A stretch of 64,000 nucleotides of DNA from assembly GCA_951406725.2 (NCBI GenBank), contig OX597836.1, positions 50,406,001 through 50,470,000 of the forward strand, in the 5' to 3' direction. The notes beneath the pieces were generated by a model. That model ran no database searches and was not told where the DNA came from. It saw only the letters and a list, made by a program, of their open reading frames with translations. The stretch is from Octopus vulgaris. Lineage: Eukaryota. The position numbers and the translations under genes were made by a program. Below, in pieces: positions 28,218 to 28,280 of this stretch. Position 1 is the first letter of the stretch. Each line of letters opens with the position of its first letter.

Positions 28218-28280
28218 AGATAACCGAAGAGATGGTGTTGTGGATTTCCACTTCGGCATCTGAAACTCAGAGTTTTATCT
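28218..28280 (+). ncRNA. Variant type-I hammerhead-like ribozyme in the PLE pLTR (other copies 30805-30867 +, 24729-24791 -, 27316-27378 -)
   Basis: Stem I agataa/ttatct; core CCGAAGA; stem II gatg..catc; extra U; GAAA; palindromic stem III actc-a-gagt; GUU cleavage triplet. Confidence 0.6.

Follow-up and report, generated by a model that had tools for sequence, protein, structure and literature searches.

Hammerhead ribozymes of Penelope-like elements (PLEs) from the Hydra clade, for instance those of Hydra-1_oBim and Penelope-3_HM, have been described as type I motifs located in the pLTR 3' of the ORF and possessing a palindromic stem III, while the elements themselves are shorter than 3 kb and occupy (TA)n targets (Craig 2021, PMC8557442). 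All these properties are shared by the octopus locus analysed here. In the Hydra rows of File S2 of the same paper, inspected by eye, a stem III of the ACUC-N-GAGU form occurs in 5 of 26 entries, U stands directly before GAAA in 18/26 and U occupies the cut site in 10/26. Thus the stem III, the GUU site and the U before GAAA, to which the initial annotation had drawn attention, are indeed present but ordinary for this clade. On the other hand, all 26 rows have CUGANGA, as their descriptor required, and a short stem II, whereas the octopus motif has C at position 4 (C4), a mismatched stem II of 31 nt and a bulged C. Minimal hammerheads of metazoan PLEs (Cervera and de la Pena 2014, PMC4209133) likewise combine a palindromic helix III with one additional nucleotide close to the stem II base (in Drosophila virilis helix II has a bulge), but there this nucleotide lies between positions 9 and 10.1 and here in the 3' strand, and the core variant given in the main text is U3-A8 rather than C4. 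Such ribozymes cleave weakly, in a dimer-type manner via the palindromic stem III (Cervera 2014, PMC4209133; Weinberg 2019, PMC6765202), and by analogy weak dimer-type activity may be expected for the octopus motif.

Two other systems are close in particular respects. The anole Poseidon element PAc has a ribozyme that requires protein, and its insertion does not depend on ribozyme cleavage (Frangieh 2024, PMC11167929). It resembles the octopus family in two fixed 3' ends downstream of the hammerhead (the “tail”) and in AT-rich targets; its cut site leaves no genomic or RNA sign, and the genomic ends of the octopus family are likewise free of a peak there. PAc differs in belonging to another clade, in its canonical core, in an ORF that starts inside the ribozyme and in that its activity was measured. 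The substitution U4C itself is natural in a viroid hammerhead, where activity in vitro is lower and infectivity is retained (Perreault 2011, PMC3088659, citing Ambros and Flores 1998), but there it concerns one variant, while here C4 is fixed in thousands of animal retroelement copies from several families. Single mutants of the CUGA turn were poorly active in a saturation study (Roberts 2023, PMC9901934). A survey of 2026 uses the descriptor CYGANGA, and the G-C closing that it requires before GAA would miss the form considered here (PMC13481778). No C4 hammerhead in PLEs was described in the literature searched; older or supplementary material could hold cases. What is new here is the derived C4 core, together with a long stem II, in a Hydra-clade PLE hammerhead, a type that is itself already known.

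The window, i.e. the whole analysed stretch of 64,000 nucleotides from Octopus vulgaris (contig OX597836.1, positions 50,406,001 to 50,470,000), contains four identical copies of a 63-nt motif (Table 1), and sequence match at all four sites bears out the earlier claim of their identity. Hammerhead positions are numbered according to standard usage. Stem I (AGAUAA/UUAUCU), the core CCGAAGA, GAUG/CAUC of stem II, ACUC-A-GAGU and GUU were each located as proposed, and self-BLAST confirmed that the plus arm begins 4 nt ahead of stem I. The consensus core (C3 U4 G5 A6 N7 G8 A9/G12 A13 A14/A15.1-U16.1/H17) is violated by C at position 4, while older subfamilies in the genome satisfy it, including U4; the C4 core is therefore non-canonical, and CUGANGA descriptors would overlook such a motif, as had been anticipated. 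An Rfam scan of positions 20000-40000 gave no hammerhead at E<=10. Since the pattern of this architecture has 3,986 matches in the genome against 0 for the reversed control (genome counts throughout are motif copies, not insertions), the window hammerhead is not a chance occurrence. A fifth seed match, at 54078 with 1 mismatch, was rejected as chance, there being no further similarity around it, and a hammerhead on the opposite strand was discarded after the reverse complement was found by eye to be devoid of a core. Judging from sequence, cleavage is predicted after the GUU end, at position 28274.

Table 1. Features of the hammerhead-bearing element and of its insertion site, in window coordinates
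Feature	Position	Strand	Basis
(TA)n target, left end, limits approximate	24666..24695	.	sequence
Inverted arm: 3' fragment beginning within the ORF, then a whole unit; (TA)n end	24692..28213	-	self-BLAST
Identical hammerhead copy	24729..24791	-	sequence
ORF of the minus arm split by a frameshift	near 26505-26616	-	ORF list
Identical hammerhead copy	27316..27378	-	sequence
Blunt inversion junction	28213/28214	.	self-BLAST, inverted repeats
Plus arm: one 2,587-bp unit + 168 nt, (TA)n at end	28214..30968	+	self-BLAST, inverted repeats
Type I hammerhead, 5' pLTR copy of plus arm	28218..28280	+	sequence, genome pattern matches
Core strand CCGAAGA, positions 3-9; C4 at 28225 derived from U4	28224..28230	+	older subfamilies CUGANGA
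Long stem II, mismatched internally at two sites; AUUU loop	28231..28261	+	folds, pair counts
Likely G10.1 facing U11.1, with bulged C	28231 (G10.1), 28261 (U11.1), 28260 (C)	+	pair counts, CAUCC ancestors
CUUCGG, complement of CCGAAG; normally 3' strand of stem II	28251..28256	+	folds, alignments
GAAA core, palindromic stem III ACUC-A-GAGU, H17 = U28274	28262..28274	+	sequence
ORF of 708 aa, single: RT region, then C-terminal endonuclease region	28486..30612	+	motifs
Stem I extension of the 3' pLTR copy	30800-30804 with 30869-30873	+	alignment, folds
Hammerhead copy in 3' pLTR	30805..30867	+	identical sequence
(TA)n target, right end, limits approximate	30966..30995	.	sequence

Elsewhere in the window there are exons of what we take, from their translation, to be a beta-tubulin-like gene (3676-4515 and 9389-9943, minus strand), fragments presumably related to a non-LTR retrotransposon RT (11501-11986 and 12668-13579, minus strand) and a presumed mariner-like transposase fragment (34829-35329). 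A tandem array of 62-nt units occupies 6431-8031 and contains about 22 overlapping near-identical frames. Near-perfect long inverted repeats are present at 32350-32879 and 35315-35670, with arms of 245 and 174 nt.

The element that hosts the motif consists of two arms placed head-to-head, has a unit of 2,587 bp and a single ORF, and combines tandem with inverted arms; (TA)n borders both of its ends in the window and is found at related loci as well. Its ORF contains RWK at residue 37, DKT at 114, YKDD at 346, the CxCX5C linker at 557 (CSCRNKELC), CxxC at 660 (CGLC) and CxH at 691 (CPH), while GxKF/Y, searched in the 708 residues as G.[KR][FY], is absent. Presence of RWK, absence of GxKF/Y, replacement of DKG by DKT, the CxCX5C linker and CxxC with CxH around E and N of the endonuclease are traits of the Hydra clade (Craig 2021, PMC8557442). 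Based on ORF motifs and structure the host is assigned to the EN+ PLEs of this clade, and by eye the N-terminal half of the ORF is close to Hydra-1_Obim. A Pfam search of the window ORF found no domain match and a PDB search found no match either; the GIY-YIG profile applied to homologues gave a weak match, below cut-off (E 0.006), in one of four. Database proteins similar to the ORF exceed 1,000, the best 120 having 42-52% identity. A stretch of 187 nt is identical in 41/41 among the matches listed, and all 150 of the 150 endonuclease copies scored are at least 99% identical, so the family is very young. The earlier claim, that the pLTR of a young PLE carries a type I hammerhead, is thereby supported by motif, element structure and family identity. 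The ORF break in the minus arm is a one-base homopolymer change; similar breaks occur in many copies and are possibly assembly errors.

Conservation and covariation of stems I-III across family copies, proposed earlier as a check, were estimated in two alignments. One of them comprised 31 copies (the first sample of 30 loci minus duplicates and minus L069 and L083, left out for damaged flanks or indels, plus five C4 copies), and the other 39 of the 45 rows of a second sample (without L175, one arm of L185 and four rows of family C, which have a different register). Cells paired in the hammerhead fold amounted to 90.9% in the first and 91.5% in the second, and cells with two-sided change numbered 26 versus 14.5 in shuffles and 12 versus 5.0, respectively, with a shuffle control that in both cases ignores relatedness among copies. 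Thus a three-stem type I hammerhead covarying above shuffles was found in both alignments. Stems I and II change on both sides, and stem III is paired in 96-98%, its arms being kept and its loop base variable. Invariance of the core and of basal stem II is not evidence, since both were fixed by the search patterns. Minimum-energy and centroid folds place CUUCGG within the long stem II. Formation of stem I is predicted at 0.75 with short flanks and at no more than 0.04 with flanks of 60 nt or longer, and in the young subfamily its outer pair is broken. The palindromic stem III was claimed to suit dimer folding, and predicted energies are indeed favourable: -7.4 kcal/mol for its self-duplex and -48.4 for a two-copy co-fold versus 2 x -18.7, a gain of about 11 kcal/mol. 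The intermolecular helix of this modelled co-fold also engages core adenines, however, and a catalytic dimer is thus not implied.

Older relatives make it possible to trace how the motif arose. Among the 3,986 pattern matches 541 have CUGA (CUGA/CAUYU), leaving 3,445 with CCGA, and a further 3,143 genome copies have CAUCC before GAAAC. The first 100 CAUCC copies listed comprise 83 CUGA and 17 CCGA, 13 of the latter being without CUUC (by eye). CCGA/CAUCU copies without CUUCGG gave 80 matches, of which some are point mutants, and those copies with CCUCGG that were examined in this set also retain ancestral flanks. From these sequences we infer that the canonical core with CAUCC was changed by U4C, then by conversion of CCUCGG to CUUCGG and then of CAUCC to CAUCU. 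Since older subfamilies carry CUGANGA and G10.1-C11.1 with a bulged C, both U4C and the U that precedes GAAA are of recent origin. The idea that this U is ancestral came from a biased pattern and was abandoned once CAUCC proved to be the ancestral state; old CAUCU copies are therefore likely products of CpG decay. The base before GAAA pairs with G10.1 in 36/39 aligned copies (33 G-C and 3 G-U), while the base behind it may be C, U, A or G. Therefore the U at 28261, described earlier as an extra one, is present but is most simply, and more likely, U11.1 facing G10.1 with the bulged C behind it. Alternatives for the young form are another register of stem II or an A9-U pair, predicted at about 0.9.

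The motif region is now only about 80% identical to old copies, with C3, G5, A6, G8, A9, GAAA, stem III and the NUH site preserved across this divergence. Core variants of the young family gave 118 matches for position 7, 8 for A6 and 26 for A9. The variants of A6 and A9 are scattered, and position 7, which the consensus leaves free, is the sole one of the three tested where a variant was amplified: about 110 of the 118 (91 of the 100 listed, by eye) belong to an A7U sublineage that multiplied in tandem and inverted insertions. Being a single lineage event, this amplification is weak evidence for ongoing constraint.

In the CUUCGG and CAGAU/AUCUG the initial annotation had seen a stem II insert able to sequester the core by a competing fold. 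Both are present in the sequence, but CUUCGG is not a free insert; it makes up the 3' side of the long stem II. It appears very improbable that CUUCGG with AUCUG is a selected off-switch, hiding the core until dimerisation or the ORF protein refolds the RNA, even if several facts speak in its favour. The match is perfect in 74/84 young segments, while a perfect 6-mer arises by chance in 2.7% of shuffled inserts; the forced anti-core fold (-15.5) nearly equals the forced hammerhead (-15.4); and the energy gap that separates the anti-core from the best fold narrows step by step through the lineage, from 10.9 (L176) through 8.1 (L198, L200) and 4.7 (L201) to 3.2 kcal/mol (window), the last two changes having gained one anti-core pair each. 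However, a perfect 6-mer within 60 nt is expected by chance in 8.9%, and across seven contexts the anti-core helix is predicted to be occupied at 0.01-2.5%, with 3% in one more. In the same seven contexts basal stem II is predicted to be occupied at 93-98%. The predicted anti-core gap is 2.8-3.2 kcal/mol, and comparable populations of two folds, typical for RNA switches, were not predicted (0.01-3% for anti-core versus >90% for stem II). The anti-core fold has 72.7% of cells paired and 0 two-sided changes in the 31-copy alignment, 73.4% and two-sided change at shuffle level in the 39-copy one. Conserved or covarying alternative helices were found neither in these alignments nor in the C4 families B and C, where a core complement lies nearby in 1/10 and 0/6 matches, respectively. 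All six anti-core pairs are present in 0/28 distinct CUGA copies, and CUUCGG post-dates U4C, as C4 copies without it had already spread (the 80 matches and the 13/17 copies above). In the A7U sublineage the match is broken (gap 7.3 kcal/mol), and yet this sublineage was amplified. The changes that created CUUCGG are mostly C/T transitions. An anti-core switch in the window hammerhead is thus unlikely on these predictions, and C/T changes in stem II probably produced the CUUCGG complement incidentally, with a minor misfold as its greatest effect. CUUCGG as a cUUCGg tetraloop was also considered and rejected, having a single closing pair and being missing from predicted folds.

A different and stronger competing helix was noticed in a sister sublineage (7/84 segments; loci L092, L227, L228, L232, L233, L235, L238 and L253), where an upstream tract could pair with the 3' strand of stem II together with GAAA. 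In one full-context example, L092, it is predicted to lock G12 with a probability of 0.98. The tract was lost in the youngest form; competing helices appear and vanish between subfamilies.

The ends of insertions were studied in 72 loci, a sample that counts overlapping loci more than once. Two sites, lying 40 and 107 nt from the scissile bond on its downstream side, account for 52 of the 66 3' ends, which agrees with the internal priming and the “tail” of PAc (PMC11167929); the 96 5' ends are scattered along the unit. A targeted pattern, whose junction filter detects roughly half of true junctions, revealed changes in the 10 nt preceding the cut site in 42 copies; by eye at most 4 of these copies break exactly at the site, the remaining ones having scattered breaks or small deletions. 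With no pile-up and at most 4/42 junctions at this point, the cleavage site was rejected as the origin of 5' ends. A cluster exists nearby: among 84 young segments (all CCGA matches among the first 100 listed for the architecture pattern) 23 have a 5' junction 2-25 nt upstream of C3 (L225-L280), corresponding to 17 independent insertions and 6 fold-back pairs, and the next 260 nt contain 9 junctions after 9 alignment artefacts were taken out by eye. The cluster may reach into the motif, since this sample is blind inside it and 6/96 ends of the 72-locus set fell there. The plus arm thus starts not at the cleavage site but 10 nt before C3, within a real cluster of 5' junctions. RT stop with fold-back at the ribozyme and transcript start are candidate causes of this cluster.

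If reverse transcription is initiated at the two downstream sites, 40 or 107 nt from the scissile bond, it must pass through the 3' ribozyme, and the template would be uncut or re-ligated RNA; cleavage at this ribozyme would separate the primer site from the ORF unless the RNA is re-ligated. With such a template strong cleavage would be disfavoured, weak cleavage, dimeric or protein-assisted, would suffice or even be preferable, and erosion of the core may for this reason be tolerated and repeated. On the best reading, ribozyme cleavage is unnecessary for insertion. Efficient cutting of tandem transcripts in vivo, with circularised unit RNA serving for rolling-circle reverse transcription into arrays, was put forward as a model by Cervera 2014 (PMC4209133) and would agree with tandem units spaced by about 2,580-2,590 bp in this genome; re-ligation would be traceless in DNA. 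Nevertheless, no accumulation of 5' ends was seen at the cut site, read-through transcripts of tandem loci explain the arrays equally well, core changes indicate reduced activity and uncut RNA is the main substrate in the anole element (PMC11167929), which leaves this route with a very low probability for the octopus family.

Relaxation at position 4 is not confined to the window family. A relaxed hammerhead pattern gave 1,103 genome matches versus 32 in the control and revealed other families with the same stem III: C4 is present in 4 of 10 fetched matches of family B, in 6/6 of family C (together L147-L174) and in 5/31 of family D (L205-L224), whose loci were picked for A4/G4. The stem II inserts of these three families contain no anti-core. 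Family B is tied to a PLE-like ORF at one locus, L160, and family C has a 3' flank in common with the window family (by eye), while no ORF similarity was found in 20 fetched stretches of family D. Matches with A or G at position 4 number 445 in the genome versus 13 in the control, and the assumption that only C is tolerated there was not borne out by these copies. Of 20 fetched A4/G4 loci, 6 owe this letter to a fold-back junction that mirrors the sequence about position 4, and the others do not. In the family D fold-backs L208, L210 and L217-L220 A4/G4 of one arm mirrors U4 or C4, and the three G4 copies L205-L207, nearly identical in their flanks, lack such a junction. Since C4 recurs in several families and A4/G4 matches are only partly mirror images, position 4 was repeatedly relaxed; perhaps it is unconstrained, which would fit a dead ribozyme equally well. 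A metagenome scan for C4 motifs gave at least 119 loci, of which 3 had minimal stems and 0 were ORF-similar among the matches listed.

What is established directly, namely the motif, its host element, canonical older relatives and the end patterns with 3' ends fixed downstream of the ribozyme, is with moderate probability explained by a type I hammerhead of a young PLE that was weakened by U4C, C11.1U and looser stems and now depends on assistance by dimerisation or protein. Cleavage after GUU would then be slow, likely occurring only in a stem III dimer or with protein help. Less probable is that in the young subfamily the ribozyme is dead and persists as a vestigial pLTR fold, its activity having disappeared since cutting brings copying no benefit or impairs it. 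Two conserved sites are changed, the second change, C11.1U, permitting the A9-U pair predicted above, the outer pair of stem I is broken, the sister sublineage with the predicted G12-locking tract spread anyway and A4/G4 cores exist; moreover, Craig 2021 (PMC8557442) suggested that hammerhead loss may aid spread. This is opposed by the retention of core letters other than 4 and 7, of GAAA, stem III and NUH at about 80% identity, by position 7 being the only amplified variant of three tested and by compatibility of U4C with cleavage in vivo in the viroid (PMC3088659). It is rather unlikely, finally, that PLEs gain by muting the hammerhead, i.e. that selection in this lineage successively added U4C, C11.1U and a core-sequestering helix, leaving the ribozyme almost silent and thereby releasing the current burst of thousands of copies, its fold serving also as the point of RT stop and fold-back.

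For the weakened hammerhead that we prefer, the question posed by Craig 2021 (PMC8557442), whether PLE hammerheads are useful to the element or are its passengers, becomes accessible in one animal. The octopus genome holds an ordered series of ribozymes, from canonical to C4, to C4 with the anti-core and to A7U, each in many copies, and since every step of this natural series is multi-copy, activity can be compared directly with amplification. Descriptors based on CUGANGA miss the form that is currently the most abundant here (about 3,400 motif copies) as well as C4 forms of three families, and these missed forms bear on claims that some PLE groups are hammerhead-free.
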